Origin: Burkholderiales bacterium RIFCSPLOWO2_12_FULL_61_40
GTDB lineage: Bacteria > Pseudomonadota > Gammaproteobacteria > Burkholderiales > Burkholderiaceae_C
NCBI GenBank assembly: GCA_001770935.1
Contig: MESI01000022.1
Location: forward strand, 106 to 64,105
Length of the DNA stretch: 64,000 bases
Direction of reading: 5' to 3'
The first letter of the stretch is position 1, and every line of letters starts with the position of its first letter. The notes beneath the pieces were generated by a model, which saw only the letters and a list, made by a program, of their open reading frames with translations, had not been told where the DNA came from and ran no database searches. Position numbers and translations under genes: made by a program. Below, one piece after another: positions 14,469-62,116 of this stretch.

Positions 14469-15260
14469 TCAGCCGCCGGGGGTATGGCGTTGGGTGGAGT
14501 CCACAAAGGCCGCCACGTAGTGGCTGATTTGGTCGTGCTGGTTCACCACCGCCGTGACCCGCAGCCACGCCGGATAACGGGCGCCGCTTTTTCGCCGGTC
14601 CCACACTTCGCCCTGCCAGAAGCGGTCGATGGGCAGGCGTTGGTGCAGGCTGTGGTATGCCGCCTCGTTTTGGCGTTCGGGCCGAAAGATGGCCGACTTT
14701 TTCCCCATCGCTTCGTGGGGGGCATAGCCGGTAATTTGTGAAAACGCGTCGTTGACCTTGAGGATGCGCTGATGGACATCGGTGACCACCAGGCCTTCCA
14801 GCGTCTGGAATGCGGTGGCGGCGATACGCAAGGCGCTTTCAGTGCGGTGGCGTTCAGACACATCACGGATCAAGGCAATGAACTCGATGCCTTCCTGTGT
14901 GCGCACCATGGAGAGCGCCATTTCCATGGGAAAGTGGTGCCCGGTACGGTGCAGCCCTTCGATTTCAACGCGGGCAGGGGGTTCTCGGCCAGATTCCAAC
15001 TGGATGAATTGGGCCAGCCGGTGCAGGTGCCCCTGGTGCCGATCCACGGGCAGGGCCAGTTCATGCAAGGTGAGCCCCATGACCTCATGCCGAAACCATC
15101 CAAAACAACGCTCGGCCTGGGTGTTCCAGCCCACGATGCAGCCATTGGCATCCATTTGCACCATGGCATCAAAAGCATGGTCGAAAATCGTTTTCCAGCG
15201 CGCGGCGTTGTGCAGCGCCCCCTCCAAAGCGTGCGACGGCATGGGTGCGCCAGATCTCAT
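14469..15260 (-). CDS. Tandem PAS-domain protein without output domain
   Basis: 263 aa with two PAS folds (...FDHAFDAMVQMDANGCIVGWNTQAERCFGW...; ...AFQTLEGLVVTDVHQRILKVNDAFSQITGY...). It ends right after PAS2 (AFVDSTQRHTPGG-stop). The start codon is formed at the MITE junction. Confidence 0.65.
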   Translation of the reverse strand: MRSGAPMPSHALEGALHNAARWKTIFDHAFDAMVQMDANGCIVGWNTQAERCFGWFRHEVMGLTLHELALPVDRHQGHLHRLAQFIQLESGREPPARVEIEGLHRTGHHFPMEMALSMVRTQEGIEFIALIRDVSERHRTESALRIAATAFQTLEGLVVTDVHQRILKVNDAFSQITGYAPHEAMGKKSAIFRPERQNEAAYHSLHQRLPIDRFWQGEVWDRRKSGARYPAWLRVTAVVNQHDQISHYVAAFVDSTQRHTPGG

Positions 15261-15363
15261 TTCGTTTTCAGATCAATGGGAGATGAGGCGCGCCGACGCA
15301 GGCAGTGCTTTAGCACGACAAGGAGGGGCAACGACATATCGCATTGAGATGGAAATGGAATCA
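15257..15363 (-). mobile_element. MITE-like 101-bp element, copy A (core 15260-15360) with TCA/TCA flanks
   Basis: 4 mismatches to copy B by hand alignment. ~19-nt imperfect terminal inverted repeats. Identical flanking trinucleotides at 15257-15259 and 15361-15363; the latter is the hemerythrin TGA stop on the minus strand. Confidence 0.8.
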
Positions 15364-15813
15364 ATGGGCAGAAAAAGCGGAGTGCTGGTTCAGCAGGCGC
15401 TGCCCCAATTCGCGGTCCGTGGTGGTGAAGTGCTCCGGCAGCCAGTCGTGCAGGTAGTGCACCAGCGCTTCGACGATAGCGGTGTCATTTTGACGGTTTC
15501 GGTCTTTTTGCAGCCATTCGATGTGGGCGGTGAATTCCCGGTGCTGTGCCAGGTGCTGCTGTTCAAAGTCGTCTTCGGCGACCAGCATGTGCATCAGCGT
15601 TTCCTCCTCGCTGAAATGAAACCGGACAAAGGTATTGAGCTGCGGCAACACTTCGTTGAGGGCTTCCGTGTCGTAGCCCGTGGCGTGCAGGGTGGCGAGT
15701 TCATTGACCAGGGCAAACAGCTCCCGGTGTTGCAAATCGATGGAGCGAACCCCGGTGTCCAGCTCCTTGTTCCATTGGATAGTCACGGTGAATTTTCTCG
15801 TGGTGCGTCGCAA
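15361..15813 (-). CDS. Bacteriohemerythrin-like protein
   Basis: 150 aa. IQWNKELDTGVRSIDLQHRELF, FHFSEEETLM and HREFTAHI...HYLHDWLPEH carry the His/Glu iron ligand pattern. Confidence 0.8.
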   Translation of the reverse strand: MRRTTRKFTVTIQWNKELDTGVRSIDLQHRELFALVNELATLHATGYDTEALNEVLPQLNTFVRFHFSEEETLMHMLVAEDDFEQQHLAQHREFTAHIEWLQKDRNRQNDTAIVEALVHYLHDWLPEHFTTTDRELGQRLLNQHSAFSAH

Positions 15814-23960: not shown

Positions 23961-24067
23961 TTATTCCGTTTTCAGATCAATGGGAGATTAGGCGCCCCGA
24001 CGCAGGCAGTGCTTTAGCACGACAAGGAGGGGCAACGACATATCGCATTGATATGGAAATGGAATTA
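23961..24067 (-). mobile_element. MITE-like 101-bp element, copy B (core 23964-24064) with TTA/TTA flanks
   Basis: TTCCGTTTTCAGATCAATG...CATTGATATGGAAATGGAA termini. Flanking TTA at 23961-23963 and 24065-24067; the latter is the higA TAA stop on the minus strand. Confidence 0.8.
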
Positions 24068-24385
24068 GGCAGCTACCGAGTGCGCTTGAAGGCTGACATG
24101 CAGCCGCTCGCGCACGGCTCGAAAAATGGCAGCGAGGTTGTCCATGCTGGGATTGCCAGTGGGCGACAACATACGGTGCAAACTCTTGCTGGGCTTGGCG
24201 GTCAACAGTGCAAGTTGCTCAAAACCGATGGTGGCATTGACAAGATCACGCAGGATCAGGCGGGCAGTCTCTGGCTCGCCGTTGAGAAACAGTGTGGCGG
24301 CCTCATCCAAGAGCGCCTGCGCAAATGATGCGTCACTCTGCACGCGCTGAATGACGGTTTCTTTGAAATTTCTGGTCAGTGCCAT
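24065..24385 (-). CDS. higA: HigA-family antitoxin (addiction-module antidote, XRE-like HTH)
   Basis: 106 aa. MALTRNFKETVIQRVQSDASFAQALLDEA...SKSLHRMLSPTGNPSMDNLAAIFRAV. Lies downstream of the toxin, as in higBA. Confidence 0.8.
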   Translation of the reverse strand: MALTRNFKETVIQRVQSDASFAQALLDEAATLFLNGEPETARLILRDLVNATIGFEQLALLTAKPSKSLHRMLSPTGNPSMDNLAAIFRAVRERLHVSLQAHSVAA

Positions 24386-24390
24386 GGCTT

Positions 24391-24747
24391 TTACCCCTTG
24401 TGTTTGCTAGTCGATTTGGCGCTCATCGCCCTTTTGCGGGTCTTGTACTCAGCCAACAATTCCTTGGCTTTATCGATGTCCCGTTGCTGGCCCCGCTTGG
24501 TACCGCCGCCAAACAGAACAATGAGGGTGTCGCCATCTTTTGCGAGGTAGATACGGTAACCGGGTCCCCAGTCGATAACGTATTCACCCAAGCCGTCGAA
24601 CCACTTGATGCTTGATGTATTCCCCAACTCCATTCGCAGTTTGGCCACGGTTACCTTCGCGGCGGCCTGCGAGGACAGACCGTCAAACCAATGCTTGTAT
24701 GGGTTTGATGCATCCTCACGGAGGTATTCTTCAACTTTGATCACCAT
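24391..24747 (-). CDS. higB: HigB/RelE-family toxin (addiction-module killer protein)
   Basis: 118 aa. ...SNPYKHWFDGLSSQAAAKVTVAKLRMELGNTSSIKWFDGLGEYVIDWGPGYRIYLAKDGDTLIVLFGGGTKRGQQRDIDKA. Confidence 0.8.
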   Translation of the reverse strand: MVIKVEEYLREDASNPYKHWFDGLSSQAAAKVTVAKLRMELGNTSSIKWFDGLGEYVIDWGPGYRIYLAKDGDTLIVLFGGGTKRGQQRDIDKAKELLAEYKTRKRAMSAKSTSKHKG

Positions 24748-31786: not shown

Positions 31787-31855
31787 GGCAATTTCCTGGA
31801 GGGGCAAGTCAAAATCCATGGCCTGAACACTGCTGCTCACGCCATGGGCTGCCCC

Positions 31856-32090
31856 CGCTGTCCGCTTTACCTGAGAGATTCACCGGGCCTGCTGGCACCC
31901 GGTAGGGCGGGCAGGCTGCGGTTTGCTCCTTCGGTGGGCTGCATCGTGTGCCGCCTCTCTCCAGTGGGGATCGCTGCAGGGCTTGGGCAAGCCGTACAAC
32001 GTTTGTCAGTCCTTTTGCCTGAGCGTTCAAACCGCTGCAATCAGCCGTTCTGCGCCTTCGGCGGTTTTCCTGAGGAAAACTCTCTCCTGA
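31856..32090 (-). promoter_or_regulatory. Tandem glycine riboswitch (two aptamers) in the gcvT leader
   Basis: The minus strand reads CAGGAGAGAG...CCGCCGAAGGCGCAG...CUCAGGCAAAAGGAC (aptamer 1). It then reads CUGGAGAGAGG...CCCACCGAAGGAGCAAACC...CUCUCAGGUAAAGCGGACAG (aptamer 2). It ends ~70 nt upstream of the gcvT ATG. Confidence 0.85.
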
Positions 32091-32176
32091 CGGGGTGGGA
32101 TTCTAAACCAGGCCGCAGGGCACAGGTTATTTGCACAAAGGGGGCCAGTGGGCCCCCTTTGTGCATGCTTGCGTGC

Positions 32177-37574: not shown

Positions 37575-38978
37575 ATGACCGAAGTACTTTCTCCTAAAAC
37601 CACCGTCAATCCTGCGCCTAAAGTAGGATTTATCAGTCTGGGTTGCCCTAAGGCCCTTACTGATTCCGAATTGATTTTGACCCAACTCAGTGCAGAGGGA
37701 TACCAAACCTCCAAAACCTTTCAAGGTGCTGATTTGGTGATTGTGAATACCTGCGGCTTCATTGATGACGCGGTCAAAGAGAGCTTGGACACCATTGGTG
37801 AGGCACTGGCCGAAAATGGGCGTGTGATTGTGACCGGTTGCCTGGGTGCCAAATCGTCCGATGATGGTGGAAACCTGGTGCGCAAAATGCACCCCAGTGT
37901 GCTGGCCGTGACGGGGCCGCAGGCCACACAGCAGGTGATGGATGCGGTGCATCTCAACTTGCCCAAGCCGCATGATCCATTCATTGATCTGGTGCCTAAC
38001 TCGTTTGGTGTTGCGGGGATCAAGCTCACGCCCCGGCATTTTGCGTACCTGAAGATCAGCGAAGGCTGCAATCACCGTTGCACGTTTTGCATCATTCCCT
38101 CCATGCGTGGGGATTTGGTGTCGCGTCCCATTGGGGATGTATTGACAGAAGCCCGTGCCTTGTTTGAGGGTGGGGTGAAGGAGTTGCTGGTGATCAGCCA
38201 GGATACCTCCGCCTATGGGGTGGATGTGAAATACCGCACCGGCTTTTGGGATGGCAAACCCGTCAAGACACGCATGCTGGAACTGGTGCAGGCGTTAGGG
38301 GATGTTGCTGAGTCCTATGGCGCCTGGGTGCGTTTGCATTACGTTTATCCCTACCCCACAGTGGACGGCATCTTGCCGCTGATGGCCACGGGAAAAATTC
38401 TGCCGTATTTGGATGTGCCGCTGCAGCACAGCCACCCGGAGGTCTTGCGCCGCATGAAGCGTCCGGCCAGTGGTGAAAAAAATCTGGAACGCATTTTGCA
38501 ATGGCGTGAGGCATGCCCCGAACTGGTTGTGCGCAGCACTTTCATTGCAGGCTTTCCGGGTGAAACCGAAGAGGAGTTTGCGCATCTGCTGGATTTTGTG
38601 CGCGAGGCACAAATTGATCGGGCGGGCTGTTTTGCCTATAGTCCAGTTCAGGGTGCGCAGGCCAACGAGTTGCCTGGCATGTTGCCACTGGAGGTGCGAG
38701 AGGAGCGCCGTGCACGTTTCATGGCGGTGGCTGAAGAGGTTTCGGTGGCTAAGCTCCAGCGGCGCGTGGGTTCTACCATGCAGATTTTGGTGGATTCGGC
38801 GCCTGGCATGGGAAAGAAAGGTGGGATTGGGCGCAGTTACGCAGATGCCCCCGAAATTGACGGTGTGGTGCGCTTGTTGCCACCTGAAAAAATCAGCAAA
38901 ACCTTGAAAGTGGGCGAATTTACCAAGGCCCGTATCGTGAGCGCGCAAGGGCACGATTTGGTGGCATTGCCGTTTTAA
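37575..38978 (+). CDS. rimO: Ribosomal protein S12 methylthiotransferase RimO
   Basis: 467 aa. MTTase N-domain ([15 protein letters not shown]), radical-SAM CNHRCTFC, C-terminal TRAM domain. Confidence 0.95.
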
Positions 38979-38991
38979 ACCAAGTGCTTGC

Positions 38992-39098
38992 TAATTCCAT
39001 TTCCATATCAACGCGATATGTCGTTGCCCCTCCTTGTCGTGCTGGTGCACTGCCTGCGTCGGTGCGCCTCATCTCGCATTGATCTGAAAACGGAATAA
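38992..39098 (+). mobile_element. MITE-like 101-bp element, copy C (core 38995-39095) with TAA/TAA flanks
   Basis: Reverse-complement of copies A/B (7 mismatches to B by hand). Flanking TAA at 38992-38994 and 39096-39098. Begins 14 nt after the rimO stop. Confidence 0.8.
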
Positions 39099-39124: not shown

Positions 39125-39155
39125 AAAAAAAAACCGCTTCAATTGAAGCGGTTTT
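39125..39155 (-). terminator. Rho-independent terminator (serves tRNA-Leu on the minus strand; weakly bidirectional)
   Basis: AAACCGCTTC-aatt-GAAGCGGTTT preceded by A9 on the plus strand, which is a U-run on the minus strand. Confidence 0.65.
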
Positions 39156-39176
39156 CATTAACTACATTAACATAGT

Positions 39177-60937: not shown

Positions 60938-61001
60938 ATCAGTCTCCGTGCGAAATACAAAAAATGAAGTTCAGGCCCGCCAAGGCCTGAAACGATCGAA
61001 T

Positions 61002-61108
61002 AGATTCCGTTTCTAATTCAATGCGAGATTAGGCGCACCGCCGTAGACAGTGCTTTGGCACGGCAAGGCGGGGCAACGACATATCGCTTTGAAGTAGGAA
61101 CGGAATTA
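61002..61108 (-). mobile_element. MITE-like 101-bp element, copy D (core 61005-61105), most diverged, flanks AGA/TTA
   Basis: About 80% identical to copy B by hand alignment and the same 101-nt length. The proximal flank TTA (61106-61108) is the TAA stop of the binding-protein gene. The distal flank does not match. Confidence 0.7.
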
Positions 61109-62116
61109 CTTGTTGCCCCAGCACAGGTCCATTCCGACCTTGGTGTCTTTGCTGTCCACACCCGCAATCGCCTTGGAGGCAACCAGGGTCACGCCAGTGT
61201 CCACATAACCCGAGGCTTTTTTACCGCCCTTGGCGTATTCCACACCCGCAGCCACGCCCATGGCCGCCATCTTCAGCGGGTACTGTTGCGAGGTGGCGGT
61301 GATCACACCCGCCGCCGTGTCCTTGATGCCCTGGCAGCCACCGTCCACCGACACAATCAGCACGCCTTTTTCCTTGCCGGCCTTCTTGAGTGCGTTGTAG
61401 GCGCCAGCGGCGGCGGGTTCATTGATGGTGTAGACCACATTGATGTCGGGGTTCTTTTGCAGGCAGTTTTCCATGGCGGTCTGGCCCTTGGCCTGGTTGC
61501 CGTCGGTGTCGCCCGCGCACACGGTCTCAGCGGTGCTGGAGAGTTCGTTGGACTTGGCGTCATGGGCTTTCAGGCCAAAACCGGTCATGAAACCGTTGTG
61601 GCGCTGGGCACCCACGGGGTGGCCGGGGAACAGGTCCAGCATGGCGATCTTGGCGGGCTTGCCAGCCATGGCGGCCTTGGCGTACTGGCCAATCAAAATG
61701 CCGGCCTTGTAGTTGTCGGTGGCGAACAGGGCGTCGGCGCCGTCAAACGGGCTGTCCAGGGCGATCACTTGCACGCCTTTGGCCTGGATTTTCTTCACGG
61801 TCGGGATGATGGCGTCGCCCGTGGAGGTGATCAAAATGGTTTTGGCGCCCGCAGCGGCCATGTTCTCCAGCGCGGTGATCTGGCTGGCGGTGTCGCCGTC
61901 TTTCTTGCCGGATGCGGTCATCAGCTTGGCGCCCATCTTCTTGGCTTCGGCCTGGGCGCCTTCTTTCATTTTGACGAAGAAGGGGTTGGTCTCGGTTTTG
62001 GTGATCAGGCCGATGATGGGTTCACCGGCTGCGAACGCGCTGGAGGTGGCGAGGGCCAGAGCAGATAGCATCAGTGTGGTGGTGGCTTGGTTCATGGGAA
62101 TCTCCTGGGTTTTCAA
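61106..62116 (-). CDS. Sugar ABC transporter periplasmic binding protein (FrcB/RbsB-like)
   Basis: 336 aa. Signal peptide ...ATSSAFA/AGE and a type I periplasmic-binding fold. The start may be the second Met (MNQATT...). Confidence 0.85.
   Translation of the reverse strand: MKTQEIPMNQATTTLMLSALALATSSAFAAGEPIIGLITKTETNPFFVKMKEGAQAEAKKMGAKLMTASGKKDGDTASQITALENMAAAGAKTILITSTGDAIIPTVKKIQAKGVQVIALDSPFDGADALFATDNYKAGILIGQYAKAAMAGKPAKIAMLDLFPGHPVGAQRHNGFMTGFGLKAHDAKSNELSSTAETVCAGDTDGNQAKGQTAMENCLQKNPDINVVYTINEPAAAGAYNALKKAGKEKGVLIVSVDGGCQGIKDTAAGVITATSQQYPLKMAAMGVAAGVEYAKGGKKASGYVDTGVTLVASKAIAGVDSKDTKVGMDLCWGNK

Follow-up and report, generated by a model that had tools for sequence, protein, structure and literature searches.

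How can a mobile repeat settle in a genome that is almost entirely made up of genes? Bacterial genomes are ~88% coding, which leaves a transposon few harmless sites in which to land. The question is raised by a stretch of 64,000 nucleotides from Burkholderiales bacterium RIFCSPLOWO2_12_FULL_61_40 (contig MESI01000022.1, positions 106 to 64,105), referred to here as the window, in which a 101-bp palindromic repeat occurs four times, always in the orientation of the upstream gene. The repeat is a mobile element that duplicates a 3-bp T-N-A target on insertion, and across the family around three quarters of its copies coincide with the stop codons of genes and follow their direction. Selection on where copies survive is the probable origin of these biases, although several observations would be accommodated better by targeting.

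Copies in the window and in related genomes

Alignment and nhmmer recovered four copies in the window, each exactly 101 nt long, and together with the list of open reading frames (ORFs) confirmed the positions, pairwise differences, flanks and gene contexts of an original prediction made from the letters and that list. Over the 101-nt alignment, copies A and B differ at 4 positions, A and C at 8 and B and C at 7, while copy D differs from the other three at 18-20. No fifth copy was found in the 64-kb window with an nhmmer profile built from the four. The copies and the triplets bordering them are:

Copy A, 15260..15360 (-): 101 nt, subfamily 1, CCATCTC...GATCTGAAAAC; recovered by alignment and by nhmmer (score 109.7)
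Left TGA of copy A, 15361..15363 (-): stop codon of the hemerythrin-domain gene 15361-15813(-); ORF list, Pfam PF01814
Right TGA of copy A, 15257..15259 (-): target duplication
Copy B, 23964..24064 (-): 101 nt, subfamily 1; the copy named in the original prediction
Left TAA of copy B, 24065..24067 (-): stop codon of the 106-aa HigA/XRE-like gene 24065-24385(-)
Right TAA of copy B, 23961..23963 (-): target duplication
Copy C, 38995..39095 (+): 101 nt, subfamily 1; rimO 3' region
Left TAA of copy C, 38992..38994 (+): not the rimO stop codon, which is 38976-38978
Right TAA of copy C, 39096..39098 (+): proven 3-bp duplication; empty site with a single TAA
Copy D, 61005..61105 (-): 101 nt, subfamily 2, CTACTTC...GAATTAGAAAC; between the sugar-binding-protein and permease genes of an ABC operon
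TAA upstream of copy D, 61106..61108 (-): stop codon of the frcB-like gene 61106-62116(-)

Read on the element strand, the flanks are TGA/TGA for copy A, TAA/TAA for copies B and C, and TAA/TCT for copy D (TCT at 61002-61004). The ORFs 15361-15813(-), 24065-24385(-) and 61106-62116(-) each have a stop codon that directly abuts the element.

To collect further loci, an exact 18-mer from the core of the element was scanned over one genome per prokaryotic species. This yielded 57 loci, nearly all from Rhodoferax and Polaromonas, with a handful of chance matches inside genes of other phyla; the species representative of Polaromonas JS666 had no match to the 18-mer. Once orthologous duplicates were dropped, 47 non-redundant full-length copies (99-103 nt) from Rhodoferax and Polaromonas genomes were kept, in which positions 19-36 are invariant because the search pattern forces them to be. 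A second sample of 11 distinct metagenome copies, several of them from the sample of the window's own organism, was retrieved through the termini alone. Like the members of a MITE (miniature inverted-repeat transposable element) family, the copies are short (<300 bp), dispersed and near-constant in length, both in the window (4 in 64 kb) and in the wider samples (47 and 11). The 47 copies belong mainly to two subfamilies, set apart by paired changes in the two arms; smaller variants also occur. Subfamily 1 (...CCATATC.../...GATCTG...) includes copies A-C, while subfamily 2 (...CTACTTC.../...GAATTAG...) includes copy D and most of the Polaromonas copies. One copy (L029:3820-3950), which lies on a stop codon with TGA/TGA flanks, is extended to 131 nt by a 30-nt internal insertion. 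Several of the metagenome contigs that carry the gene of copy B (L064, L066, L067 and L068) terminate within the element, which thus breaks short-read metagenome assemblies right at gene ends.

Insertion with duplication of a T-N-A triplet

Mobility is seen most directly at copy C. In two Rhodoferax genomes with 98% RimO identity (L069 and L070) the corresponding site is empty and reads ...AAGTGCTTGC TAA AACCTTTATGG..., where the window has ...AAGTGCTTGC TAA (101 nt) TAA AACCTTTATGG... in otherwise near-identical flanks. The single TAA of the empty sites, set against TAA-element-TAA in the window, proves insertion with a 3-bp duplication. An excess of identical flanks among the wider copies had been set beforehand as a test, and it was found: 26/47 copies have identical 3-nt flanks, compared with a permutation mean of 12.3 (P<1e-5). 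At the middle position the left and right triplets have GG in 12 copies, AA in 10, TT in 2 and CC in 2, versus GA in 7 and GC in 1. Copies flanked by TCA/TCA or TTA/TTA are elements reversed on a TGA or TAA, and the target is therefore T-N-A and not T-R-A. The duplication originally proposed thus holds as to its length, on the strength of both the empty site and the flank statistics, but not as to its restriction to T-R-A. The neighbours of the triplet show a weak palindromic preference, cTNAg, with G at +4 in 22/35 copies versus 25% at ordinary stop codons (P=2e-6), and C at -4 in 18/35 versus a background of 34%.

For copy B no empty site was found, as all 7 contigs with an identical protein are filled; 93% homologues of its gene lie in other genomic contexts because the toxin-antitoxin pair to which it appears to belong is itself mobile. 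For copy A there is no record of the exact protein, and a metagenome scan for relatives was negative. Orthologous frcB genes that lack the element read ...AAG TAA TCT..., where the window has TAA, copy D and TCT. Apart from copy D, then, the target duplication expected of a MITE is seen both in the filled and empty sites (L069, L070) and in the flanks of 26/47 copies. The evidence is strong that this is a mobile element of the DDE type, non-autonomous, with inverted repeats at its ends and a 3-bp duplication of T-N-A.

Coincidence with stop codons and gene direction

A gene was called at a stop codon where a coding-like ORF was recognised by its length and GC3 periodicity. By this measure, 35/47 copies have as their left triplet the in-frame stop codon of a gene that runs in their own direction, and one reversed copy (L008), which has the gene on its other side, raises the coincidence to 36/47. 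The null was formed by the TNA sites in the same loci with the elements removed, among which stop codons account for only 13.7% of all non-coding TNA sites and for 33% of CTNAG sites (binomial P=3e-22 and 1.5e-9, respectively). When the test was conditioned on each copy's own intergenic region, 27 stop-codon cases were observed versus 12.1 expected, both between tandem genes (19 vs 7.7) and between convergent genes (8 vs 4.5). The bias is partly a preference for short gene-end spacers and partly, inside the spacer, a ~2-fold preference for the stop codon itself. The triplet most often targeted is TGA, and around half of the stop-codon copies occupy short spacers within likely operons.

Orientation at stop codons is skewed 35:1 (P=1e-9), whereas copies away from stop codons divide into 6 R and 4 Y (Fisher P=0.006 relative to the stop-codon copies). 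Of the 11 metagenome copies, 6-8 are sense-at-stop, 1 is antisense-at-stop and 2-4 lie elsewhere. Both biases are real, and the coincidence with stop codons and the fixed orientation first noticed in the window hold across the family, the metagenome set included. The statement that the element lands on stop codons survives as a description of where copies are found (36/47), but this may reflect survival rather than aiming. As the triplet is duplicated, the upstream protein is left unchanged. For example, homologues of the 106-aa protein at copy B that lack the element are also 106 aa long, and frcB orthologues finish at the same TAA.

Insertion can also rebuild a start codon. The element terminates in A, and with a TGA duplication the right junction reads A followed by TGA. 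In Rhodoferax sp. UBA5149 (L046:1891-1991), the element sits in a 4-nt ATGA stop/start overlap, where the left TGA stays the stop codon of the upstream gene and, at the right junction, the element's A plus TG restores the ATG of a 529-codon downstream ORF with a genuine-looking N-terminus, MTPTTATTLQFDVLIVGSGL. At copy A (15257-15260) the original site was TTGA, and the element's last A plus the TG of the right triplet form a new ATG that opens, in frame, the 263-codon PAS-domain ORF 14469-15260(-). An ATG made in this way at the right end of an element can mislead start-codon calling.

Hairpin structure and strand asymmetry

The 101-bp unit consists of ~19-22-bp imperfect terminal inverted repeats (TTCCATTTC... 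/ ...GAAAyGGAA) flanking a conserved 51-bp palindromic core, and each copy can be folded as one long imperfect hairpin. The hairpin, its GTGC-N4-GCAC tip and the changes in copy D at positions 5, 9, 10 and 13 were as first described. The terminal repeats form an outer helix of 20 pairs in which 83.5% of cells are paired and 11 pairs show two-sided changes. Over the whole stem, 13/30 pairs show two-sided changes versus 5.9 in column shuffles (0/500 shuffles reach 13), an excess that lies mostly in the terminal arms. Stem complementarity is maintained, though a need for both ends to match one transposase, or templated repair within the palindrome, would explain the two-sided changes equally well. 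The paired changes of copy D are subfamily differences, in a subfamily common in Polaromonas, and are not private to that copy. Of the earlier claim that complementarity is under selection, the excess of paired changes is borne out, while selection as its cause is only partly shown.

The two strands fold unequally. Copy B has a predicted folding energy of -30 kcal/mol on the sense strand, that of the upstream gene, and -43.2 kcal/mol on the antisense strand; the means over 42 copies are -36.6 and -45.1 kcal/mol, with the antisense strand the more stable in 41/42. Non-Watson-Crick stem cells on the sense strand comprise 89 A·C and 5 G·T, and the sense strand folds worse because an A·C on one strand is a G·U on the other.

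Like other MITEs, the element has no coding capacity. None of the sense frames stays open in a majority of copies (the longest internal ORF has a median of 17 codons), and the one antisense frame that is open, in 40/46 copies, has neither a start codon nor a ribosome-site context and is not a multiple of 3 once the duplication is counted. A peptide encoded by the element was rejected, since no frame is conserved. Neither a sigma-70-like promoter nor an intrinsic terminator was found within the element, and no Rfam covariance model matched at its gathering score, the best being a plant microRNA model at E=0.4.

Relatives sharing the core and the probable mobilising transposase

The central 51 nt of the element (GTCGTTGCCCC.CCTTG.CGTGC-loop-GCACTG.CTGCG.CGG.GCGCCTA) recur at ~83-85% identity in 99-126-bp elements of five other genera, namely in Eleftheria terrae, Undibacterium, Cupriavidus metallidurans CH34, Ralstonia and Paraburkholderia. 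The termini of these relatives differ from those of the window's family, beginning GAG... (GAGCGGCTAACAAAAC and variants), and their flanks are TTA/TTA, TAA/TAA and similar (T-A/T-A). The sequence GAGCGGCTAACAAAAC is identical to the left end of an annotated insertion sequence of the IS5 family, 865 bp long and flanked by TAA/TAA, on a Cupriavidus taiwanensis plasmid. Next to a Ralstonia copy lies an IS5-family transposase gene that has an end of the same kind but is truncated, and this fragment was therefore rejected as a partner. Another GAG-type relative lies between cheD and cheB in the che operon of Ralstonia wenshanensis (L224:1470-1600), where the cheD stop codon TGA falls inside the left terminal repeat (GAGACCGCTGAAAAACG), so that the last part of the gene appears to be provided by the element.

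Termini that start with GAG are typical of the IS1031 group in the ISfinder convention, and the IS1031 kind of IS5 element is, to our knowledge, the only bacterial group with an exclusive 3-bp TNA duplication. Insertion of elements of this group is described as occurring at 5'-TNA-3' and leaving an exclusive 3-bp repeat (PMC12016507), the same target and repeat as are found here. A transposase of the IS5/IS1031 kind is most likely what mobilises the family, as we infer from the exclusive 3-bp TNA duplication and from the core-sharing elements with IS1031-like ends. The link to IS5-like transposases in the original prediction holds for the superfamily and is supported indirectly by the TNA repeat of that group and by relatives with IS5-family termini; it is weakened by the lack of GAG ends and of a partner. 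No transposase had been noticed in the window, and a tblastn search of the window and all loci with IS5-family transposase fragments likewise returned nothing. Paired termini 0.3-4 kb apart gave only a chance match in AT-rich phage-like DNA (L152/L216), and searches of PLSDB and IMG/VR with the element termini found nothing.

Further elements with similar ends, or lodged in copies of the family, were seen in the collected loci. A related family of ~134 nt in Comamonadaceae (L045:2661-2794 and L043:6231-6354, both Polaromonas) has the same kind of termini (TTCCAATTCGCATTG...CAATGCGAATTGGAA) around a different interior, shares the TTCCAATTCG ends of the window's family and is flanked by TGA/TGA; its L043 copy comes after the stop codon of a gene, and the L014 orthologue of that gene bears a 101-nt copy. 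A transposase that recognises ends of this kind probably exists. A second, unrelated palindromic repeat of ~95 nt (GGAGCTTGGGCGGCAGAGCGTTCTGCGCAGG...CTGCCGCCCAAGCTCC), adjoining CTAG, occurs in the Rhodoferax metagenome-assembled genome (MAG) JAUYQD01 (L037:5100-7200). Its middle resembles the published motif GCCCGCNCAGCGGGCG of the Beta-proteobacterial repeat element (BRE). One of its copies interrupts a truncated TTCC element, which suggests nested MITEs. In Polaromonas sp. P2-4 (L024:1863-2140 and L043:6220-6260) the repeat ATTGAGCTTTTCACAATTCATGACAGCATYCCYGTCATTGCAGGC twice abuts truncated TTCC elements and could be the end of another mobile element, one that inserts into such copies. That one core is found with two unrelated kinds of termini leads one to ask how ends or cargo are exchanged between MITE families.

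Selection, targeting or function

The account that we consider probable is of a TNA-duplicating MITE, moved by an IS5/IS1031-like transposase, whose biases come from selection. A transposase encoded elsewhere would cut the element and paste it into T-N-A, preferably cTNAg, duplicating the triplet. The excess at stop codons would arise mainly from insertions there being the least harmful in a compact, GC-rich genome, as stop codons would offer guaranteed TNA sites and everything downstream would stay intact. The orientation bias would then reflect selection on the transcript, in which the sense stem, with its A·C mismatches, is predicted to be 9-13 kcal/mol weaker and should thus be less disruptive for ribosomes that arrive at the stop codon, for RNase III or for read-through into the cistrons that follow. 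Such a hairpin would be tolerated better beside a terminating ribosome or within a polycistronic mRNA. Selection of this kind is consistent with the A·C mismatches of the sense strand, with the positions in operons, with the random orientation of copies elsewhere and with a target that is purely palindromic.

Several observations weigh against this account. The window's family has TTCC...GGAA termini in place of the GAG typical of the IS1031 group, and searches of the window, of 177 related loci (~1.3 Mb), of PLSDB and of IMG/VR yielded no transposase gene with such ends. Copy D, judged by the frcB orthologues, lacks a second TAA. Slow purging of badly placed copies should make the stop-codon fraction rise with age, and no rise is seen, the fraction staying flat with divergence from the subfamily consensus (8/10, 14/20 and 13/16). 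Relative to site availability, sense-at-stop copies are in ~20-35 fold excess, while the frequency of antisense-at-stop copies is close to that of copies elsewhere, a pattern nearer to positive retention or targeting than to the loss of one orientation. In addition, the GAG-type relatives, which use the same target class, lie on stop codons in 1-2 of 9 copies (Fisher P=0.003 versus the window's family; the 9 copies come from secondary replicons), so that a TNA target and ordinary purifying selection alone are insufficient to produce the bias. The absence of an age trend, the sense-at-stop excess, the persistence of the preference between convergent genes and the relatives without bias fit better with targeting or positive retention.

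It is worth asking whether the element homes to stop codons in the direction of the gene, or whether the core has a function for sense-at-stop copies in polycistronic mRNAs, a joint proposition that we regard as rather doubtful. If either were true, the element would be a transposon adapted to life on stop codons: it would restore the stop codon and, where genes overlap by ATGA, the start codon that follows, and would be more than a random TNA inserter filtered by selection. Active homing, in which a transposase or host factor would pick gene ends with regard to direction and so fix position and orientation at insertion, is unlikely on its own. It would explain why the association is equally strong in the youngest copies, why only the sense-at-stop class is in excess with no depletion of antisense-at-stop copies relative to other sites, why the stop codon is used at 2.2 times its share of the TNA sites in each intergenic region, convergent ones included, and why relatives with the same target class lack the bias. 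However, the flanks show the weak palindromic cTNAg and nothing direction-specific, a DDE transposase cannot read the direction of a gene from a palindromic target, and copies away from stop codons occur in both orientations; we know of no precedent for a bacterial DDE transposase that reads the direction of translation or transcription. Somewhat less likely still is a domesticated function, in which a sense hairpin after the stop codon would be useful in the mRNA and copies would be kept by positive selection; its role might be translational coupling by looping out, the tuning of cistron ratios, or the provision of a CCUCC anti-Shine-Dalgarno-like stretch. The conservation of the 51-nt core, unpaired positions included, across bacterial families with different termini points in this direction, as do the number of copies in operon-like spacers, the start codons rebuilt at ATGA overlaps and the compensatory changes that preserve the stem. 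Part of the core conservation is, however, forced by the search pattern, the RNA that would act is the worse-folding strand, there is no Rfam family, promoter or terminator signal, the host genes are functionally unrelated, and the insertion is polymorphic between near-identical genomes and is thus not needed at a given gene. The likelihoods given for homing and for a role in RNA are compatible with the MITE finding and with each other, and need not sum to one.

A different mechanism altogether would be that of an IS200/IS605-type PATE, moved as single-stranded DNA by an HUH transposase that inserts 3' of T-R-A without duplication, so that the right TRA would be the element's own end. Strict dependence on strand and orientation at stop codons, the much better folding of one strand, the frequent inequality of left and right triplets (TGA/TAA in 7 copies, TGA/TGG in 5) and the missing second TAA of copy D are what such an element would lead one to expect. 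A fixed element end cannot, however, explain why a left TCA or TTA is matched by the same right triplet in 6/8 copies. The target is palindromic, the structure is a single long hairpin with terminal repeats and not two subterminal hairpins, and the ends of the core-sharing elements are identical to those of a DDE IS5-family element. Membership of the PATEs was rejected on the TCA/TCA and TTA/TTA flanks, the palindromic target and the single hairpin, and this mechanism is very improbable.

Gene contexts in the window

The stop codons first proposed to flank copies A, B and D, those of the hemerythrin, higA and sugar-binding-protein genes, agree with the ORF ends and with the Pfam or JGI names of the products. 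The 106-aa protein at copy B has no Pfam match and is named 'DNA-binding phage protein' by JGI, from which name it is HigA/XRE-like. It is encoded together with a 118-aa protein, which has no Pfam match either, by a gene pair upstream of copy B (24065-24747 (-)). Proteins 93-95% identical to this pair occur in quite different neighbourhoods of other Comamonadaceae, such as MacB/FtsX genes or a PIN-domain pair, and the pair behaves like a mobile toxin-antitoxin cassette.

Pfam confirmed the RimO domains at the copy C locus and the periplasmic sugar-binding protein at the copy D locus. With 98% identity to the RimO of Rhodoferax MAGs, this protein assigns the window to a Rhodoferax sp.; here "this protein" is the window's RimO. 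The site of copy C is 13 nt past the rimO stop codon, with a bidirectional terminator (A-run/hairpin/T-run, 39125-39160 (+)) and a convergent tRNA-Leu downstream. Copy D, too, is closely followed by a terminator-like hairpin (60970-60991 (-)), located between the genes for the binding protein and the permease. The positions of these terminators place both elements upstream of the terminator of the transcript. The frcB-like gene (61106-62116 (-)) is 86% identical to its counterpart in the MAG with 98% identical RimO (contig JAUYQD010000018), and its best matches, at 91-94%, are in other lineages, which suggests that the sugar-transport operon was replaced by horizontal transfer. Elsewhere in the window, a tandem glycine riboswitch (31848-32099 (-)) has two aptamers scoring 54 and 52 bits.

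Relation to known repeats and significance

The closest counterparts of the family are the IS1031-group IS5 insertion sequences and the GAG-ended MITEs of Burkholderiales (99-126 bp), with which it shares the 3-bp T-N-A duplication. The GAG-ended MITEs are also ~100-bp non-coding palindromes with a homologous central 51 nt (~83-85% identity). The families differ in their termini (TTCC...GGAA versus GAG...CTC), in their targets (TGA commonest versus T-A/T-A only) and in the strong stop-codon and orientation bias of the window's family (36/47 versus 1-2/9).

Other repeats share parts of this description. Correia/NEMIS in Neisseria, ERIC/IRU in enterobacteria and RUP in pneumococcus are likewise MITEs of ~100-150 bp with long hairpins. 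They are co-transcribed with their neighbours, and effects of orientation and of RNase III or RNase E on the mRNA have been documented (PMC10969869, PMC2229807). In contrast to the window's family, they duplicate TA in the manner of IS630, and no coincidence with stop codons is reported for them in the reviews covered. An IS630-type MITE (Correia, RUP, ERIC) was rejected here because 3 bp are duplicated, with a middle base that varies, and not TA. REP/BIME sequences are, like the window's family, palindromic extragenic repeats just downstream of genes, and Liang and Deutscher are said to have found that REPs within ~15 nt of a stop codon lower translation of the upstream gene. REPs are, however, 20-40 nt long, without terminal inverted repeats or target duplication, and tied to RAYT tyrosine transposases; a 101-nt element with a duplication is therefore not a GTAG-type palindrome of this kind. 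The MIRUs of Mycobacterium, reportedly described by Supply et al. in 1997, are said to be intercistronic and operon-oriented, with ends that overlap the flanking stop and start codons. Unlike the window's family, MIRUs are tandem minisatellites with small ORFs and have neither inverted repeats nor a target duplication.

The BRE is ~90 bp long and mostly intergenic in Polaromonas, Rhodoferax, Delftia and Bordetella (Hot et al. 2011; PMC3110155). It was rejected as an identity for the element, since its published sequences are unrelated (TTTTTTGCGCGCGGGCCGCCCAAGGCAAAAAAGCCCCC...) and it forms tandem arrays (PMC3110155). The RIME/Sm-repeats and Bru-RS of alpha-proteobacteria were set aside because the hosts here are Comamonadaceae and there was no rhizobial plasmid match, and the Chunjie MITE, with its 9-bp duplication, is not comparable. 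A stop-codon-associated MITE is unmentioned in a 2024 review of prokaryotic MITEs (PMC10969869) and in two reviews by Delihas. No prior description of the 101-bp family was found in the literature covered, which did not extend to the Polaromonas JS666 genome paper (Mattes 2008), which reports MITEs.

An IS5/IS1031-style MITE that duplicates TNA is a known kind of element; what is new is the termini, the core shared across families and the unusually strict association with stop codons in gene orientation. The T-N-A duplication permits the element to sit on TGA and TAA stop codons, inside operons and on 4-nt overlaps with the encoded proteins unchanged. The 35:1 orientation and the mismatches confined to A·C amount to a natural experiment in which a large stop-adjacent hairpin is set against termination, mRNA processing and translational coupling.

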